Assembly: GCA_021821305.1 (NCBI GenBank)
Contig: JAKACP010000001.1
Coordinates: 404,349 to 468,348, forward strand
Source of the DNA: a bacterium
GTDB taxonomy: Bacteria > Patescibacteriota > Minisyncoccia > Moranbacterales > UBA1568
Direction: 5' to 3'
Length of the DNA: 64,000 nucleotides
The position numbers and the translations under genes are program-made. The notes beneath the pieces are model-generated. The model made no database searches and had not been told where the DNA came from. It saw nothing but the letters and a program-made list of their open reading frames with translations. Positions 5,871 to 59,480 of the stretch are shown here, one piece after another (the first letter of the stretch is position 1; each line of letters starts with the position of its first letter).

Positions 5871-6158
5871 ATGCTCTCAGTCGAAGAAGTGAAACATATC
5901 GCCCTTTTGGCTCGTATCGGCCTTACCGATACGGAGGTCGAAAAATACCGGAAGGACCTTTCGGGCGTCTTGGATTTTTTCAAGGAACTGGAGTCGTTGG
6001 ACCTGTCCGGGGAATCGCTCGGCACCGCCGTCCCGCGAAAAACGAACGACTACCGCGAGGATCGCGCTGAGGATTTCGGCTCGGCCGGGAAACAGGCGAT
6101 CATGGAAAACGTTCCGGAAACCAAGGACGGGTACGTGAAGGTGAAGTCCGTGTTTTAA
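5871..6158 (+). CDS. gatC: Asp-tRNA(Asn)/Glu-tRNA(Gln) amidotransferase subunit C
   Basis: 95 aa. MLSVEEVKHIALLARIGLTDTEVEKYRKDLSGVLDFFKELESLDLSG is the classic GatC fold signature. It lies directly upstream of gatA. Confidence 0.9.
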   Translation: MLSVEEVKHIALLARIGLTDTEVEKYRKDLSGVLDFFKELESLDLSGESLGTAVPRKTNDYREDRAEDFGSAGKQAIMENVPETKDGYVKVKSVF

Positions 6159-6231
6159 AATGATCCTTAGCCGGTGGACGCTGACCCGCGCTTCCCGGTA
6201 ACCCCCTCCATTATTCATTGTCCGCGTCGAT

Positions 6232-8898: not shown

Positions 8899-9095
8899 CT
8901 TTTTCTTTCTCAATTTATCGGTGTTTGGCACCTCACCCTACCCGGTGTCTCCCGTTTCCGACCGCACCCTCACCGCCCGGTCTTTTCCTTCGAAAAACTT
9001 CCCTCACTCGACGGCATCCCGAGAATATTTTCCGGGAAAACAGGGGCTTGCTCAAACAATGTGCGGTTCCCGGCGAACGGAAGACATCGGGTCGG
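8899..9095 (+). repeat. Copy 1 of the 3-copy conserved intergenic element (core 8956-9073), degenerate copy
   Basis: Near-identical to 52193-52397 across a core of about 120 nt: ttccgaccgcaccctcaccgc...cctcactcgacggcatcccgagaatattttccgggaaaacaggggcttgctcaa...gtgcggttcccgg. It is flanked by the imperfect inverted repeat cccggtgtctcccg / cgggagacatcggg. Copies 1 and 2 share homology over about 55 nt beyond the core. A frameshift relative to the other copies argues against protein coding. Confidence 0.85.
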
Positions 9096-9352
9096 CGATA
9101 CGCGAGCGCTTCCCGGCCGGCATTTCCTTCTTCCGGCCGTTTGGCATCGGAAGCGTGCATGGTTCCGCCGGAGGCGGAGAGCGACGATGGCAAAGAATGA
9201 TTTTCCTCGCAGGGGAAAATCATGTGCCGGAAGAAGGAAATGCCGAGACGTAGAAGCGGCTAGGGAGCGCAGAGACTTGATTTTTTCCCGTATCCGTGTC
9301 ATATTTCTTTCTCCTTTCCGCTCACCACCGACTACCTGCTACGTACTGAAAT

Positions 9353-21486: not shown

Positions 21487-21843
21487 ATGGGTCTCCTGTT
21501 TCGTTGGTTTTCGGTCGCGATCGGATTCATGGCGGCGGCATACTTCGTTCCGGGTATAGTGCTCGAGGGAGGATTCCCGACCGCGATACTGCTCGCGGCG
21601 GTCTGGGGCATCATCGGGATGCTCGTGCGCCCGATACTCGTCATCCTGACCCTGCCGGTGACGATACTGACGTTCGGACTGTTCATCTTCGTCATCAATG
21701 CGGGCCTCTTCTGGTGGATTGGGGACATCCTCGAGAACTTCCATGTCGCCGGTTTCTGGGCGGCGCTTCTCGGTTCGATCGTCCTTTCCGTCGTCTCGTC
21801 GATCATCAACTGGATCCTCGCACGGTTCCGCGACGAGGAGTAG
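21487..21843 (+). CDS. Small 4-TM membrane protein of the phage holin family 4 / DUF360 type
   Basis: 118 aa with 4 TMs. Pattern FVPGIVLEGGF...VRPILVILTLPVTILTFGLFIFVINAGLFWWIGDIL...HVAGFW matches holin-4/DUF360 proteins. A -10 TATAAT lies upstream at 21448. Confidence 0.55.
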   Translation: MGLLFRWFSVAIGFMAAAYFVPGIVLEGGFPTAILLAAVWGIIGMLVRPILVILTLPVTILTFGLFIFVINAGLFWWIGDILENFHVAGFWAALLGSIVLSVVSSIINWILARFRDEE

Positions 21844-21844
21844 A

Positions 21845-22030
21845 AGCCGGTTCAAAATCTCATGTCGAGAGAAAACATTTGGATTTCGAGCGAAAACCAT
21901 GCATCGTGAGAAGGCCTATCGTGATAAGCCGCCGAGCGATAAATGATTTGCAGCCGAAATCCGGATGTTTTCTCCGGCAAGCAGATTGTTTCCACTTTTA
22001 ATTCATCGCGGTGATATTTTGAACCGGCTT
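21845..22030 (+). repeat. Nested inverted-repeat element filling the whole intergenic space between the holin-like gene and the GT4 gene
   Basis: Outer perfect 15-bp inverted repeat aagccggttcaaaat (21844-58) / attttgaaccggctt (22016-30). Inner 20-bp stem gagaaaacatttggatttcg (21869-88) / cgaaatccggatgttttctc (21955-74) pairs perfectly at the RNA level, including two U.G wobbles. The element ends 3 nt before the ATG at 22033. Confidence 0.7.
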
Positions 22031-22032
22031 TT

Positions 22033-23157
22033 ATGAAGATCGCGCTCGTCCATGATTATCTCGTCCAGTACGGAGGAGCGGAACGGGTACTCTCGGCGTT
22101 CACGGAGATTTTTCCGGAAGCGCCGATCTATACGTTGCTCCACGATTCGCGCGCGGTGCATGGCGCGTTCGATGACGCCCGGGTCTATACGTCGTTCCTG
22201 CAGGGCATCCCGTTCATCAGGCGCATGCATCGATGGTTTCCGCCGCTCATGCCGCCGGCCATCGAACAGTTCGATTTTTCGATGTACGACGTGGTCCTCT
22301 CGGACTCATCGAGCTATGCCAAGGGAATCCTGACCCCGCCGGAGACGCTCCATATCTCCTATGTCCATACGCCGATGCGGTACGCGTGGGACGACTGCCA
22401 GAAATACGCGCAGGACTTCGGCTTTCCACGCCTCGTGAAGAAGTTCGTCCCGTTCTTCATGAATCCGATCCGCATCTGGGACAAGGCGAGCGCGGACCGG
22501 GTCGACCGGTTCCTCGCCAACTCCGATTTCGTCGCGCGGCGGATCAGGAAATACTATCGCAAGGAAGCGGAGGTGATCCATCCTCCCGTGGATGTCGATC
22601 GGTTCTTCGTCGCCGACCGCCAAGGGGATTACTTCCTCATGGTCGGCCGGCTGATCGCGTATAAACGGTTCGATATCGCGATCAGGGCGTTCAACCGCCT
22701 CAAGCTGCCGCTCCGGATCATCGGCCGCGGGCCGGAGTACGACCGGCTTCGCAAGATGGCCGGCCCGACGATCGAGTTCCTCGGAAGGGTTCCGGACGAG
22801 GAATTGCCCAGACAGTACGCCGAGTGCCGGGCATTCGTGTTCCCGCAGGAGGAGGATTTCGGCATCGTGGCGATCGAAGCGATGGCTTCGGGACGGCCGG
22901 TGATCGCCTTCCGTGGCGGCGATATCGAGGAGCGGGTCGAAGAGGCTGTTTCCGGGGTCTTTTTCGACGAGCAGACGCCCGACGCCATAGTTGCGGCGGT
23001 ACAGCGGTTCGAGACTCTGGCTTTCGATCCTGGGAAAATCCGCGAAAAAGCCATCCCGTTTGACAAAGCCGTATTTAAGCGCAAAATAAGGGAGTATGTC
23101 GAAAACTCCCTGGCGGAACATCTTCGGAAAATCAAAAGCCCGGATGTCAGCCTTTGA
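22033..23157 (+). CDS. Glycosyltransferase family 4 (GT-B, RfaG-like)
   Basis: GT4 C-terminal motif GRLIAYKRFDIAIRAFN...FVFPQEEDFGIVAIEAMASGRPVIAFRGGDIEERV (EX7E-type). Confidence 0.85.
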   Translation: MKIALVHDYLVQYGGAERVLSAFTEIFPEAPIYTLLHDSRAVHGAFDDARVYTSFLQGIPFIRRMHRWFPPLMPPAIEQFDFSMYDVVLSDSSSYAKGILTPPETLHISYVHTPMRYAWDDCQKYAQDFGFPRLVKKFVPFFMNPIRIWDKASADRVDRFLANSDFVARRIRKYYRKEAEVIHPPVDVDRFFVADRQGDYFLMVGRLIAYKRFDIAIRAFNRLKLPLRIIGRGPEYDRLRKMAGPTIEFLGRVPDEELPRQYAECRAFVFPQEEDFGIVAIEAMASGRPVIAFRGGDIEERVEEAVSGVFFDEQTPDAIVAAVQRFETLAFDPGKIREKAIPFDKAVFKRKIREYVENSLAEHLRKIKSPDVSL

Positions 23158-25352: not shown

Positions 25353-26705
25353 ATGGCACAGGATTCGAAGAAACACCTTTCGCCGTTGTCCGCGATGTTG
25401 GTCGCGATGCTCTCGCTCGGTCTCTTCACCGGCGGGACGGCGCTCATGGTAAAGACAGGCGTGGTATCGGCCGCTCCGTTCGCGTTCGTCCTGGGAGACG
25501 AAGATGAAGATGAAGACGAAGACAAGGATGATGATAAGGACAGCAAGGACGAGGACGACGAGAAGGATGACGACGGCAAGGACGAAGATGATGATAAGGA
25601 CAGCAAGGACGAGGACGACGAGAAGGATGACGACGGAAAGGACGAGGACGACGACCGTGATGATGAATCGGAGAAGCTCTCCGGACGGGGCGGGGATTCC
25701 GAGTCCGATGAGGATGGCAAGGACGAGGATGAAGAAGACGGAATGGAGGATGAAGACGAAAACGAAGATGGTGATGATGGTCTCAAGGACCTCATGGAAA
25801 AGGTAGCGGAATCGGAGAAGGAGATCTTCGAGAAACAGCGAGAGGGCGTGGATGCCACGGCCGCGCTCGCACGGATCGCATCGGCGAAGGGAGTCCTCGA
25901 GGCCTACAAGGCCGCGGTCGCCGCGGGAAATTTCGGGGAAGCCGACCGGTTGGCGAGAGAGATCAAGAAGCTCTCTCATTTCGCGGTGGAAGAGGATCTG
26001 CATGACGCGAAGAAATCGTCGGAGCGACTGAAGCAGGCGCAGGAAAAGATAGCCAAGGCCAAGGCCAAGATAGCCCTCCTTGCCGCCGCGGGCGGATCGA
26101 CAGGAGGCCTCGTGGAACTGCTCGCCGGAGCGGAGGCCAAAGTCGCCGCAGGGAACGCTCTTCTGCCCTCGGGGGACTTCATGAACGCGGAGAGCCTGTT
26201 CAAGGAAGCGAAGAGCATCGCGAACCGCGTGAAGGATATGGCTGAAAACGCACTCTATGCGATCGGCGGGAGCGACGATGATTTCGATGACGATCACGAG
26301 GAGTTCTCGGAAGAAGTGTCGGATGAACTCGACGATATCGCCGAGATCGAGGAAGACGACGACCGGGTGAACGCGATCAAGGCGATCGTGTCGAAGCAGA
26401 AAGCGTCCGGACTCGCGGTCGCGGCGTCCGTCCAGCTCGCGCAGGAGCGGAGCGCGCTTGCGAAGTTCTTCCTCGGATCGGATGACCTGTCGCTCGGATC
26501 GATCCAAGCGAAGATCGCCGAGAACGCCGCGAACGCGGCTGCGCTCCGGGCCCTCGCGCAGTCTTCCGGTGATGCCGATATCCAGGAACTGCTCACCGAG
26601 CAGGCGGAGCGGATCGAATCCGAGAACGTCAAACTCCAGGCATTCGTCGGTGCACAAGCCGATTCCAACGGCCTCTTCGGGTGGCTGGTCGATCTCTTCG
26701 TGTAG
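25353..26705 (+). CDS. Membrane-anchored/secreted highly acidic repeat protein (D/E-rich N-terminal region, Ala-rich coiled-coil C-terminal region)
   Basis: N-terminal hydrophobic segment LSAMLVAMLSLGLFTGGTALMV is followed by about 120 aa of almost pure D/E/K with a DNA-level 2 x 60-bp tandem repeat. Then come Ala/Lys-rich helices and a second acidic stretch (DDDFDDDHEEFSEEVSDELDDIAEIEEDDD). No family recognised. Confidence 0.7.
   Translation: MAQDSKKHLSPLSAMLVAMLSLGLFTGGTALMVKTGVVSAAPFAFVLGDEDEDEDEDKDDDKDSKDEDDEKDDDGKDEDDDKDSKDEDDEKDDDGKDEDDDRDDESEKLSGRGGDSESDEDGKDEDEEDGMEDEDENEDGDDGLKDLMEKVAESEKEIFEKQREGVDATAALARIASAKGVLEAYKAAVAAGNFGEADRLAREIKKLSHFAVEEDLHDAKKSSERLKQAQEKIAKAKAKIALLAAAGGSTGGLVELLAGAEAKVAAGNALLPSGDFMNAESLFKEAKSIANRVKDMAENALYAIGGSDDDFDDDHEEFSEEVSDELDDIAEIEEDDDRVNAIKAIVSKQKASGLAVAASVQLAQERSALAKFFLGSDDLSLGSIQAKIAENAANAAALRALAQSSGDADIQELLTEQAERIESENVKLQAFVGAQADSNGLFGWLVDLFV
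25531..25650 (+). repeat. Tandem direct repeat, 2 x 60 bp, inside the acidic-protein gene
   Basis: 25531-25590 and 25591-25650 are identical except about 4 nt. Both encode DDKDSKDEDDEKDDDGKDED. Confidence 0.9.
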
Positions 26706-48133: not shown

Positions 48134-48350
48134 GGCTCATTCAGCTTATCTTTTTCCGATTCGTCCCGGATCTTCCTTTTCGCGGTACGCGGTTTTCCTG
48201 CTGAAAAATCTCTCGATGATGCCGCCGGCCGCGGCATCAGTGCCCGCGAAAAGAAAATCCGAGCCGAATATCGGAGCGGGAGCTCTTTTTGTCGAGCCCT
48301 TCAGCTGTTTGTTCAAAAACTCCTTTTATCGGGGGTTTTCTTTCGTACTC

Positions 48351-52162: not shown

Positions 52163-52200
52163 AAGACCTGCGTTTGAGCTCATCGCAGGTCTTTTCTTTT
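52163..52200 (+). terminator. Rho-independent terminator
   Basis: aagacctgcg-tttgagctcat-cgcaggtctt followed by ttctttttctc. Confidence 0.75.
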
Positions 52201-52221
52201 TCTCAATTTCTCGGTATTTTG

Positions 52222-52397
52222 CACATCACCTTACCCGGTGTCTCCCGTTTCCGACCGCACCCTCACCGCTCCCTGTTTTCTTTCCGGAAAATATTCCTCA
52301 CTCGACGGCATCCCGAGAATATTTTCCGGGAAAACAGGGGCTTGCTCAAGCAACGTGCGGTTCCCGGTGAACGGGAGACACCGGGTTGGTGATGGTG
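52222..52397 (+). repeat. Copy 2 of the 3-copy conserved intergenic element (core 52249-52367), best-preserved copy
   Basis: 28-bp near-perfect terminal inverted repeat cacatcaccttacccggtgtctcccgtt (52222-49) / aacgggagacaccgggttggtgatggtg (52370-97). Internal perfect 13-bp hairpin ccggaaaatattc (52284-96) / gaatattttccgg (52317-29). Core is about 95% identical to copy 3. Confidence 0.9.
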
Positions 52398-52438
52398 TGG
52401 CACCGGTCGGGAGGCGGTCGTGGAAAGGTCACGGAGGC

Positions 52439-52467
52439 TTGACAAAAATAACAAAAAGGTGTATGAT
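52439..52467 (+). promoter_or_regulatory. Sigma70 promoter of secreted protein gene A
   Basis: TTGACA (52439-44), 17-nt spacer aaaataacaaaaaggtg, TATGAT (52462-67). Nearly identical to the promoter at 53071. Confidence 0.65.
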
Positions 52468-57045: not shown

Positions 57046-57060
57046 AAGGTGGAAAACCGA

Positions 57061-57096
57061 AAGCGGAAAGGACAAATCCTTTCCGCTTTTTCTTTG
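57061..57096 (+). terminator. Rho-independent terminator
   Basis: agcggaaagga-caaa-tcctttccgct followed by ttttctttg. Confidence 0.75.
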
Positions 57097-57104
57097 TTCC
57101 ACTT

Positions 57105-57260
57105 CGAACGGTGCATCACATGTGCCGGGAACCGCGCATTGTTTGAACAAGCCCCTGTTTTCCCGGAAAATATTCTCGGGATGCCGTCGAGTGAGGAATA
57201 TTTTCCGGAAAGAAAACAGGGAGCGGTGAGGGTGCGGTCGGAAATGGGATGCACCGTTCG
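57105..57260 (-). repeat. Copy 3 of the 3-copy conserved intergenic element (core 57125-57243), inverted orientation
   Basis: The reverse complement matches the core of copy 2 at about 95%. It is flanked by a different perfect 13-bp inverted repeat, cgaacggtgcatc (57105-17) / gatgcaccgttcg (57248-60). The internal 13-bp hairpin is conserved. The small hairpin uugcu-ca-agcaa of copy 2 reads uuguu-ca-aacaa here (C-G to U-A compensatory change). Confidence 0.9.
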
Positions 57261-57287: not shown

Positions 57288-59402
57288 TCACTTGCCGATC
57301 GCGATGCGCGCGTCGATGACGCGGAAATTGTCCGCGTCGGGAAAGACGTTGACCGGATTGATGTCGAGTTCCCGTATTTCCGGGAAATCCTCGACAAGCC
57401 GTGAGAGACGTTCGAGCAATTCGACGATGTGGTCGGTATCGATCCTGGCTTCGCCACGGGCGCCGTCGAGGATCGAGGCGCTCCGCAGTTCCGAGAGCAT
57501 CTCGAGGGCGTCCTCGCGGACGATCGGCGCGAAGCGGAACGATGCGTCGTTCAGCACTTCGGTGTAGATGCCGCCCATGCCGACGACGAGCACGGTGCCG
57601 AGCCCCGGTTCCTGCTTCGCTCCGAAGATGAGCTCCTTGCCTCCGGACATCGCCATCTCGACGATCATCGCGCCTTCGAGGCGCGCCTCGGGGGCCTTCA
57701 TGCGCACCCGGTGGAGGAGCTCTCCGAATTTCTGTCCCGCTTCCTCGGGTGCGACGTTGAGCATGACGCCGCCCAATTCCGTCTTATGTATGATGTCCGG
57801 GGAAACGATCTTGAGGACGACCGGCCGGCCGATCTCCCGCGCCGCCTTGTCCGCTTCCTCGGGACTGCGGACATAGGTGCTCCGGAGGATCGGAAATCCG
57901 TACGCGCGGAGGACCTCGTAGGCCTCGCGCTCGTAGAGCATGGTGCGCTCCTCGGCGAAGACGCGCGCGAAGATTTCCTTCGCCCGGTCACGGTCGATAT
58001 CGGGGAATTCACGCTTCGCGGAGAAACCGCCCGACCGCCACTTCGCCACCTGTGCCATGGAACCGAGCGCCTTCGCTCCCTCTTCGGGATAGGCGAAGAC
58101 GGATACTCCCGCTTCCCTGAGTATTTCCGCTCCCGCCTCGAGGAGCGACGATCCGGCGAAGACCGCGACGACGGGCTTGCCGCAGGATCGTTTGGTTTCC
58201 ACGATGGCGCGTGCCGTCTCTTCGGCTTCCGTCATGGACTGCGGCGTGAGGATCACGAGCAGGCTGTCCACACCCTCTTCCGCCGACACGAGTTCGAGCG
58301 CCGCGCGGTATCGGTCGCTCTTGGCGTCTCCGAGGACGTCCACCGGATTCTCGACGCTCGCCGCCTGGGGGAGCGCCCGGTGGAGCGCGGCCTTGGTGTC
58401 GTCGGAGAGGGCGGCCAATGTGAGGCCGGCCCGGCTCGCCGCGTCGGTCGCGAGCACGCCGGGTCCGCCGGCGTTGGTGATGATGGCGACGGAACTCCCG
58501 CGGGGGAGGGGATTCTTGGAAAAGATCGACACGGCGTCGAGCAGTTCGCGGAGCGTGTCGGCGCGGAGCATGCGCGATTGCCGGAAGATCGACTCATACG
58601 CGGCCTCGGAACCGGCGAGCGCGCCGGTATGCGAGCTCGTCGCCTTTATCCCGCTCTCGCTCCGTCCCGACTTGAGGCCGATGATGGGCTTGGGTTCGGC
58701 GCGGGAGATCGCGCTCCGGCCGATTTCGACGATCGCGGCCGCATCGGTGAGGTTTTCGGAATAAAACGACACTACCTTGGTCGAGTCATCCTCGGCGAAG
58801 AAGGTAAGGAGCGCCTTCTCGTCGATCACCGCCTTGTTGCCGGTGCTCACGAACTTGGAGAAGCCGACTTCCCCTCGGGCGAGGTCGAGCATGGCGGTGC
58901 AGAGCGCACCTGACTGCGAGAAGAACGCGACCGGGCCGTCGTCAGGCAGTACGGGTGCGAACGAGGCGTTGAGACCGATCTTCGGGTGCAGGAACCCGAG
59001 ACAGTTCGGTCCGAGGAGCGCGATGCCGTATTGTCCGGCGATCGTCGCGACCGTGTCTTCGAGCACCTTGCCGTCCGGCCCGGTTTCCTTGAATCCGGCC
59101 GAGATGATGGCGGCCGCCCTGATACCTTTTTCTCCGGATTGCCGGAGCACTTCCGGGACGATGGCGGCCGGGACGATGATGATGGCGAGCTCCGGCGTGC
59201 CGGGGACGCTCGCGAGGTCTGGGTAGCAGGGGACGCCGAAGAGTTCGGTGGTTTTCGGATTGACGAGGAAGGTCTCTCCCGCGAATTCGCCTTGGGTGAG
59301 ATTTTTCGCGATGTCGTTCCCGACGCTTCCCGGAGTGGTCGAGGCCCCGATGACGGCGATCGACTTCGGCGAGAACAATATATTGAGATCGGAGGTCTGC
59401 AT
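57288..59402 (-). CDS. Acetate--CoA ligase (ADP-forming), fused alpha/beta subunits (acetyl-CoA synthetase, NDP-forming)
   Basis: N-terminal CoA-binding Rossmann domain (KSIAVIGASTTPGSVG), succinyl-CoA-synthetase-like domains with a phosphohistidine loop region, and a C-terminal ATP-grasp domain. The start at 59402 (cat 59400-02) lies downstream of a minus-strand promoter. The ORF-track start at 59480 would lie upstream of that promoter. Confidence 0.8.
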   Translation of the reverse strand: MQTSDLNILFSPKSIAVIGASTTPGSVGNDIAKNLTQGEFAGETFLVNPKTTELFGVPCYPDLASVPGTPELAIIIVPAAIVPEVLRQSGEKGIRAAAIISAGFKETGPDGKVLEDTVATIAGQYGIALLGPNCLGFLHPKIGLNASFAPVLPDDGPVAFFSQSGALCTAMLDLARGEVGFSKFVSTGNKAVIDEKALLTFFAEDDSTKVVSFYSENLTDAAAIVEIGRSAISRAEPKPIIGLKSGRSESGIKATSSHTGALAGSEAAYESIFRQSRMLRADTLRELLDAVSIFSKNPLPRGSSVAIITNAGGPGVLATDAASRAGLTLAALSDDTKAALHRALPQAASVENPVDVLGDAKSDRYRAALELVSAEEGVDSLLVILTPQSMTEAEETARAIVETKRSCGKPVVAVFAGSSLLEAGAEILREAGVSVFAYPEEGAKALGSMAQVAKWRSGGFSAKREFPDIDRDRAKEIFARVFAEERTMLYEREAYEVLRAYGFPILRSTYVRSPEEADKAAREIGRPVVLKIVSPDIIHKTELGGVMLNVAPEEAGQKFGELLHRVRMKAPEARLEGAMIVEMAMSGGKELIFGAKQEPGLGTVLVVGMGGIYTEVLNDASFRFAPIVREDALEMLSELRSASILDGARGEARIDTDHIVELLERLSRLVEDFPEIRELDINPVNVFPDADNFRVIDARIAIGK

Positions 59403-59423
59403 AGCGGAAAAAAAGAGATTACG

Positions 59424-59480
59424 GTACCAGTATAGCGGATGACCCCATCTCTTGACAAAAGAGCCATTTTTTGCTATCAT
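59424..59480. promoter_or_regulatory. Overlapping divergent promoters sharing a palindromic -35 (TTGACAA/TTGTCAA)
   Basis: Plus strand: TTGACA (59452-57), 17-nt spacer, TATCAT (59475-80), driving 59508. Minus strand: TTGTCA (reverse complement of 59453-58), 18-nt spacer, TATACT (reverse complement of 59429-34), driving the acs gene. Confidence 0.55.

Follow-up and report, generated by a model that had tools for sequence, protein, structure and literature searches.

The DNA analyzed here is a stretch of 64,000 nucleotides (nt) of contig JAKACP010000001.1, referred to as the window, from a candidate phyla radiation (CPR)/Patescibacteria bacterium related to Candidatus Moranbacteria, as indicated by the flanking proteins. 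It contains three copies of a noncoding hairpin repeat, termed family A. Copy 3 lies between convergent genes. A plus-strand open reading frame (ORF) of 69 aa is followed by a strong terminator, by copy 3, and then by the stop codon (at 57288) of a minus-strand gene for ADP-forming acetyl-CoA synthetase (ACS); an initial annotation, made from the letters of the sequence, had placed the copy correctly. The features of this locus are as follows:

57105-57260, minus strand: copy 3 (W3), short form of family A, closing helix included; 163.7 bits with the covariance model on the minus strand
57105-57117: outer-stem arm CGAACGGTGCATC, the 3′ arm in element orientation, read as complement
57248-57260: outer-stem arm GATGCACCGTTCG, the 5′ arm in element orientation, read as complement
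57153-57221, minus strand: long inner hairpin, with arms at ~57153-57175 and 57196-57221 and a 20-nt apical loop at 57176-57195
57059-57090, plus strand: bidirectional intrinsic terminator that the 69-aa gene and the ACS gene have in common, kept in relatives without the element

The core of copy 3 was 94.7% identical over 132 nt to that of copy 2 (52236-52367), in agreement with the near identity first noted, and 88.7% identical to that of copy 1 (8943-9074); mutual identity of the three window copies was 88-95%. Two invariant blocks, TTTCCGACCGCACCCTCACCGC and CTCGACGGCATCCCGAGAATATTTTCCGG, each had exactly three occurrences in the window and none in shuffled sequences. The core is bracketed by CGAACGGTGCATC and GATGCACCGTTCG, which form a perfect 13-bp inverted repeat. 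No perfect inverted repeat of at least 13 nt with a spacer of 100-140 nt was found in 20 shuffles of the window. As the initial annotation stated, this flanking repeat differs in sequence from that of copy 2 (CCCGGTGTCTCCCG/CGGGAGACACCGGG). The annotation had also raised the question of whether outer stem and core co-fold. They formed one nearly continuous helix, with a free energy of -77.3 kcal/mol (z-score -7.3) as RNA and -47.4 kcal/mol (z -7.7) with DNA parameters.

Copies 1 and 2 are long forms of the same element:

8912-9112, plus strand: copy 1 (W1), long form, a chimera; 159.8 bits
8880-8909, plus strand: terminator preceding copy 1 (GCTCTTTCGGGGGAGAGAGCTTTTTCTTTC), unchanged in L032, a relative with the empty site
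9277-9305, plus strand: promoter-like TTGATT-17-CATATT of the ABC-F gene, read from the sequence
52205-52406, plus strand: copy 2 (W2), long form, consisting of the core, a 14-bp helix and a palindromic layer GCACATCACC/GGTGATGGTGTGGC; 179.2 bits, -111 kcal/mol, z -9.3
52163-52203, plus strand: terminator hairpin and T-tract directly upstream of copy 2, kept in L017 and L018; read from the sequence and the alignment
52439-52467, plus strand: promoter-like TTGACA-17-TATGAT directly downstream of copy 2, kept in L017 and L018

The 14-bp closing helix of copy 2 is formed by CCCGGTGTCTCCCG (52234-52247) and CGGGAGACACCGGG (52372-52385). In copy 1 the 5′ arm is the same, and the 3′ arm (CGGAAGACATCGGG) is degenerate. 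The two copies lie at unrelated loci and have in common both the 14-bp helix and a further palindromic layer outside it, of ~30 nt (5′) and ~20 nt (3′); the element can therefore carry outer layers along.

Related sequences were retrieved through exact-protein matches. They comprised a sister strain (ENA ERZ534008 NODE_6, loci L018 and L021; DNA 99.6-99.7% identical to the window), relatives at the ACS locus (L036, 91% identity; L013/L017, 88%; L014, 85%) and relatives at the ABC-F locus (L032-34, 92%; L035, 83%). L012/L019 and L037 were the window's own genome in the form of fragmented Logan contigs. Two further versions of family A were found. In the sister strain, the copy-2 slot holds E2 (L018 550-744; 195 nt), with a core in inverted orientation that is ~88% identical and a closing stem, CTTCCATCCC/GGGATGGAAG, of a third type. 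R17 lies in L017 (20979-21129) and is 82% identical to copy 1, with a 5′ arm of the copy-1/2 type and a decayed 3′ arm. Three outer-stem types were thus present among five copies. The single outer stem in all additional copies that the initial annotation had named as evidence against its own reading was not seen.

We conclude that family A is probably a lineage-restricted, noncoding, non-autonomous palindromic repeat of ~135-200 nt, similar to miniature inverted-repeat transposable elements (MITEs) or REPINs, whose stem travels with the element. The evidence for this conclusion, and for other explanations, is given below.

Covariation and mosaic structure of the helices

The outer hairpin of copy 3 had been described as completely different from those of copies 1 and 2. 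This description did not hold: in a trimmed alignment of the five copies, the helices of copies 1, 2 and 3 were homologous. CGGTG/CACCG was kept, as were several further pairs. Five to six pairs were swapped on both sides (T-A to C-G, C-G to A-T, G-C to A-T, and the outermost CC/GG to AA/TT), two pairs were broken, and one wobble pair had become a Watson-Crick pair. Judged from this alignment, the outer stem of copy 3 is a compensated variant of the family's own helix.

The consensus fold of the five copies had 55 pairs, with 92.1% of alignment cells paired. Double-sided changes were found in 15 of the 55 pairs, compared with 6.1 ± 1.7 in shuffled alignments (none of 500 reached 15) and 0-4 when partners were slid by 1-3 columns. 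Six of the double-changed pairs were in the outer helix, one in the second helix and eight in the long inner hairpin. In the apical loop, alignment columns 69-83 (15 columns) were identical in the four copies from the window's species. These findings show that all helices keep their complementarity through paired changes, and that the loops are nearly invariant.

The initial annotation had offered, as an alternative, a structured RNA whose closing helix is under purely structural selection. Because compensatory changes are present in all helices, the pattern agrees with that proposal. Compensatory changes on the two sides of a hairpin are reported to be common in mobile REPINs (PMC3116915). 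The pattern is not proof of an RNA, because mobile DNA hairpins of this kind show it as well and because the orientation of the copies relative to transcription varies.

A paralogous family of structured noncoding RNAs (small RNAs or cis-acting elements of 3′ untranslated regions), with functional loops and with helices under RNA structural selection, would account for the covariation in every helix, for the conservation of loops above stems, including a 20-nt apical loop (57176-57195 in copy 3) invariant in four same-species copies, and for the very stable folds (z -5.7 to -9.3). Every copy lies within a few nt of an intrinsic terminator, and copy 3 and R17 are located between a stop codon and the terminator, so that they are probably transcribed, as far as their position indicates. 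On the other hand, copies 1 and 2, like E2, lie in the spacer between a terminator and the next promoter, and the element has no conserved promoter or terminator of its own. Orientation relative to the flanking transcription unit was inconsistent: W3 is sense, whereas R17 and E2 are antisense. Both strands folded about equally well; G-U cells (18) and A-C cells (11) on the copy-1/2 strand showed no clear strand asymmetry, and what difference there was is weak. The broken, chimeric copy 1 is nevertheless retained without change in two strains. Presence and absence turn over at orthologous sites among relatives that are 83-92% identical. There was no match in Rfam, and no loop-complementary target of at least 12 nt was found elsewhere in the window. 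We therefore regard an RNA family as an unlikely explanation.

Divergence between copies was distributed in patches. In the long hairpin, W1 and W2 had 10 differences over the 32 positions of the 5′ arm and none over the 31 of the 3′ arm. Copy 1 has a 5′ hairpin arm of the type found in R17, and the hairpin and 3′ outer arm of this copy are partly broken (z -1.27). W2 and W3 had no differences over alignment columns 17-83 and 13 of 32 in the outer helix. The copies have thus exchanged patches: copy 1 is a chimera, and copy 3 combines an interior of the copy-2 type with a divergent outer helix. Such abrupt shifts in divergence, as aligned, point to patch-wise recombination or gene conversion between subfamilies; since the copies are mosaics, gene conversion is indicated. 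The possibility, mentioned in the initial annotation, that copy 3 is a recombinant fits this pattern.

Stems of this kind may also be built locally. Template-switch (quasi-palindrome) mutation creates and maintains hairpins (PMC8794818), and it accounts for perfect stems and for several "compensatory" changes at once without selection on RNA. After arrival or truncation of the core, fold-back or template-switch synthesis would copy the flank in inverted orientation, so that each copy would gain locus-specific stems and many "compensatory" changes would result from a single event. The outermost layer is indeed unique to each copy: GCACATCACC/GGTGATGG.. in W2, GAGAGTGTGCCG/CGGCATACTCTC in E2, GGAAAAGCG/CGCTTTTC in R17 and TCCATT/AAGTGGA in W3. 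Divergence jumps from 0% in the interior to ~40% in the outer helix, and the mechanism is documented for hairpins generally (PMC8794818). Relatives have a native spacer (CCCGTTCTTCAGTGCGG in L014, CCCGTTCAG in L036) to which the distal 3′ arm of copy 3 and its flank, CACCGTTCGAAGTGG, are similar; however, this similarity consists of one 6-mer and one 4-mer. That copies 1 and 2 have outer layers in common at two unrelated loci also argues against local building. Template switching is a mutational process rather than an element family, and it leaves the presence of the same core at several loci unexplained. Local building of the outer layers is, in our judgment, distinctly unlikely. A broader version is very unlikely: the element of these CPR bacteria would be a mobile DNA in hairpin form, or a structured nucleic acid with a function, that is recognized by its loops and has its outer layers rebuilt from the flank at each new site by fold-back or template-switch synthesis, so that a palindrome specific to the locus would result from every insertion.

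Gain and loss of whole elements at orthologous sites

The copy 3 site was empty in L036, L017/L013 and L014. The spacer between the two genes was 79-85 nt in these relatives vs. 242 nt in the window, and it contained no palindrome; both the terminator and the stop codon of the ACS gene were kept. The copy 2 slot of L017 held 45 unrelated nt, vs. 232 nt in the window, between the T-tract GGTCTTTTCTTTT and the -35 box of TTGACA-17-TATGAT, the promoter-like sequence (52439-52467) that marks the right edge of this variable slot. The flanks of the slot aligned nearly base for base. At the copy 1 slot, L032 has the identical terminator GCTCTTTCGGGGGAGAGAGCTTTTTCTTT with a TTGATT...CATACT promoter ~10 nt further on; the corresponding distance to the ABC-F promoter in the window is ~365 nt, a slot taken up by copy 1 and a separate Y-shaped hairpin. 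These findings show that the whole unit, including the closing helix, is gained or lost as a block, in short spacers next to terminators and in either orientation.

The Y-shaped structure lies directly 3′ of copy 1 (9113-9250) and consists of a 20-bp perfect closing stem, CGGCATTTCCTTCTTCCGGC/GCCGGAAGAAGGAAATGCCG (9118-9245), that encloses a pair of hairpins (-75.4 kcal/mol, z -6.4). The sister strain carries it without change. The empty site of L032 lacks both copy 1 and this structure, and no second copy of the latter was present in the DNA fetched.

The initial annotation had proposed that the core inserted into the loop of pre-existing hairpins. A mobile core of this type, integrating into locus-specific hairpins as IS1397 and IS110-family elements do at REP or terminator hairpins, would explain why outer stems differ by locus (three types in five copies) and why all copies adjoin terminators. 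It predicts an empty site with a bare hairpin, the check that the annotation itself had put forward. All three loci have empty orthologous sites, and a target hairpin without the insert, by sequence or by position, was found neither at those of copy 3 (L036, L017/L013, L014) nor at those of copy 2 (L017) and copy 1 (L032, L035); in particular, the hairpin cgaacggtgcatc...gatgcaccgttcg was not seen at the ACS site of the sampled relatives. Insertion into pre-existing hairpins is unsupported because the empty sites lack the hairpin. The three stem sequences had no other occurrence in the ~270 kb fetched. Moreover, the stems of copies 1, 2 and 3 are homologous, compensated variation extends to the inner helices, and the same outer layers occur at two unrelated loci. 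Hairpin-targeting insertion sequences (IS1397/ISKpn1 in REP loops; IS110/IS621) resemble family A in having a conserved insert within a locus-specific palindrome; they differ in that the empty sites here have no hairpin, the insert is noncoding, and the bracketing helix is homologous between loci. We consider this model highly improbable.

Between the window and the sister strain, the flanks of the copy-2 slot are 99.6% identical and the cores lie in opposite orientations, as expected of an invertible DNA switch whose core flips between flanking inverted repeats; however, the two alleles have unrelated flanking repeats and outer layers, which rules out a simple inversion, no recombinase gene lies nearby, and the window allele was unchanged in three other samples, so that such a switch has a nearly negligible chance of being correct. 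The slot shows replacement rather than a flip, because the cores are ~88% identical and the alleles differ in length (232 vs. 195 nt).

Searches for further copies gave consistent results. The covariance model R1, built from the five copies and applied to the window and ten loci (~212 kb), recovered only the known copies; the best additional match scored 15 bits (E 1.4). A scan of the whole window against Rfam 15 at the gathering threshold detected RNase P RNA and two tRNAs only, with no match to family A, and permissive Rfam scans of copies 1 and 2 gave only chance-level matches (E ≥ 0.25). No conserved ORF was found inside the family A copies, and no sigma-70-like promoter inside the element. 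Blastn of copy 2 against plasmids and phages gave no match, nor did a comparison of concatenated ORFs running through the element with 5.8 billion proteins. The motif CCGGATCTTCC was not enriched, although it had seemed to recur close to several of the elements.

Sequence collections were scanned with exact words of ~20 bases, by which diverged copies would be missed. A 20-mer from the 5′ conserved block had nine single matches in genome contigs of unrelated phyla; none had the loop motif, and they were attributed to chance. A 20-mer from the apical loop had two matches in metagenome contigs, both in coding sequence and not in the element. A degenerate loop motif had six matches in IMG/VR, all in one homologous, non-palindromic phage coding gene. 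The 22-nt apical-loop motif CCTCAYTCGAMGGMATCCSGWG lies inside this gene on six viral contigs (L026-L031) in surroundings unrelated to the element, and we treat the match as a coincidence. Within the limit of such scans, family A looks restricted to this lineage. Short-read contigs (Logan, ENA) were observed to stop inside the family A repeat: L012/L019 and L039/L040 start there, and L022 and L037 end there. Assemblies are therefore broken at these repeats, and metagenome-assembled genomes will contain too few of them.

If family A is a non-autonomous palindromic repeat, as we think probable, it would spread as DNA, mobilized in trans by an enzyme encoded outside the window. Its spread or persistence would require a single-strand hairpin or a cruciform, as has been argued for REPINs, so that only copies with intact stems would multiply; alternatively, one arm of the paired stems may be re-templated from the other by template switching. 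The stem of copy 3 would then derive from the element's own stem, as a variant belonging to a subfamily or produced by recombination, and would not be a captured target hairpin. Any effect on the host would be independent of orientation, for example that of a 3′ hairpin near terminators.

Several observations weigh against this interpretation. Neither the window nor the fetched flanks yielded a domain of a transposase, recombinase or reverse transcriptase; the ~105 kb read of the 826-kb genome contained no transposase domain, and no RAYT (Y1 transposase) gene was found in the window or the fetched loci. Only five distinct copies are known, from the window and ten loci (~212 kb). For target-site duplications there are just two candidates, CGAA (4 bp) at copy 3 and TGAGCG (6 bp) at E2, and none is evident for copies 1 and 2; element junctions are defined only to within a few nt. 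The termini are the least conserved part, opposite to classical MITEs and REPINs. The loops are conserved in a manner typical of functional structured RNAs: W1 and W3 differ at 0 of 41 unpaired and 24 of 110 paired positions. Finally, the strain difference at the copy-2 slot could reflect an allele imported by homologous recombination rather than transposition; divergence of its flanks rises to 1.6%, and a replacement at another hairpin slot, between gatC and gatA, includes coding bases.

Other hairpin repeats and comparison with known elements

Over ~30 kb in which the window and the sister strain were aligned, there were only two large differences, both at hairpin slots. One is the copy-2 slot. 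The other is the gatC-gatA spacer, which is 98 nt in the window (6133-6230) vs. 214 nt in the sister strain and wholly different; in the latter it contains a long hairpin repeat of another family (C; L021 7443-7656), A/C-rich in the first arm and G/T-rich in the second, which the window spacer lacks. The final codons of gatC are part of the replaced segment, so that import by homologous recombination is suggested. Further copies of family C were found at L018 13227-13351, L018 12502-12555 and L017 4126-4250.

A third family (B) is represented in the window by a 195-nt nested hairpin (21840-22035) with a 19-bp closing stem (-83.9 kcal/mol, z -8.2), whose end abuts the ATG of a glycosyltransferase gene at 22033. 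Its copies, 72-73% identical, are at L032 9815-9974, L032 8554-8704 and L017 7548-7736; the first of these lies inside the 5′ untranslated region of ABC-F, where the window has none. Thus, at least two unrelated hairpin-repeat families behave like family A, and one of them is a strain-level polymorphism. An additional nested hairpin at 48154-48276, CTTTTCGCGG...CCGCGAAAAG around GATGCCGC/GCGGCATC, lies between an M50 peptidase gene and its terminator. This is the slot occupied by R17 in L017; the flanks align, and the occupants do not.

The genes of the window are otherwise housekeeping genes (pilus proteins, DNA ligase, GatCA, SecDF, aminoacyl-tRNA synthetases, MreBC/PBP2, glycosyltransferases, RNase P RNA and tRNAs). 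The ACS ORF (57288-59480, minus strand) encodes 730 aa, vs. 704-706 aa in most homologues. Only the closest relatives (P0171, 731 aa) also have the 25 additional residues at the N terminus, which may represent a mis-called start or a lineage-specific extension. In a 450-aa ORF at 25353-26705, degenerate 9-60-nt repeats (repeat family D1, 25497-25805) encode an extremely acidic D/E/K-rich stretch; the ORF had no Pfam match.

We compared family A with named repeat families. Like REPINs, it consists of short noncoding extragenic palindromes that form long hairpins as single-stranded DNA or RNA, are multi-copy and polymorphic, and carry compensatory changes (PMC3116915). REPINs, however, have conserved REP ends and a variable spacer; family A has the hairpin and the compensatory changes, but the reverse arrangement, with variable ends and conserved loops. 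REPINs number tens to hundreds of copies, vs. a handful known for family A, and no RAYT/Y1 transposase was seen here.

Bacterial MITEs, e.g., the Correia elements of Neisseria, are non-autonomous elements of ~100-200 bp with inverted termini that insert in intergenic regions near genes, in either orientation, and are polymorphic among strains. Family A corresponds to this description in size, inverted termini, intergenic location and polymorphism, being short, noncoding, multi-copy (five copies) and insertion-polymorphic (empty sites for all three window copies). It differs in that there is no conserved terminal inverted repeat (the three types differ from each other at 6/16 to 13/16 positions), no clear target-site duplication and no cognate insertion sequence in the ~105 kb read, and in that its body is wholly a nested hairpin, not termini alone. 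ERIC/IRU elements of enterobacteria are imperfect palindromes of ~127 bp that are intergenic, often transcribed, found in both orientations and variable in presence at orthologous sites; some are lengthened by additional segments inside or outside, and no enzyme is known to mobilize them. Family A resembles them, but has no sequence relationship to ERIC and belongs to another host phylum; it is located specifically by intrinsic terminators, and strains differ by replacement of the whole allele.

Two further classes were rejected. On inspection of the five termini, the TTCGAAC/GTTCGGT ends of copy 3 deviate from the RYYYAAC...GTTRRRY consensus of integron attC sites, and the other copies have no AAC/GTT ends. 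An inverton does not fit either: the alleles at the copy-2 slot differ in repeats, in length and in 12% of the core, with no recombinase gene nearby. Family A works like REPINs, MITEs and ERIC, but we do not assign it to any named family.

CPR/Patescibacteria genomes are very small and are usually called poor in repeats and mobile DNA, and our literature search found no report of small palindromic repeats in this group. The lineage studied here has at least three families of 130-200-nt nested-hairpin repeats. To our knowledge, integration without fixed ends or target duplications has not been described for bacterial repeats; if it is true that the outer layers come from flanking DNA, family A would represent an undescribed integration route for hairpin DNA. 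Covariation alone cannot separate a functional RNA from a selfish DNA hairpin, which calls for caution when RNAs are sought in metagenomes by covariation. From the ~30-kb strain comparison, hairpin repeats appear to be the fastest-changing part of the genome.

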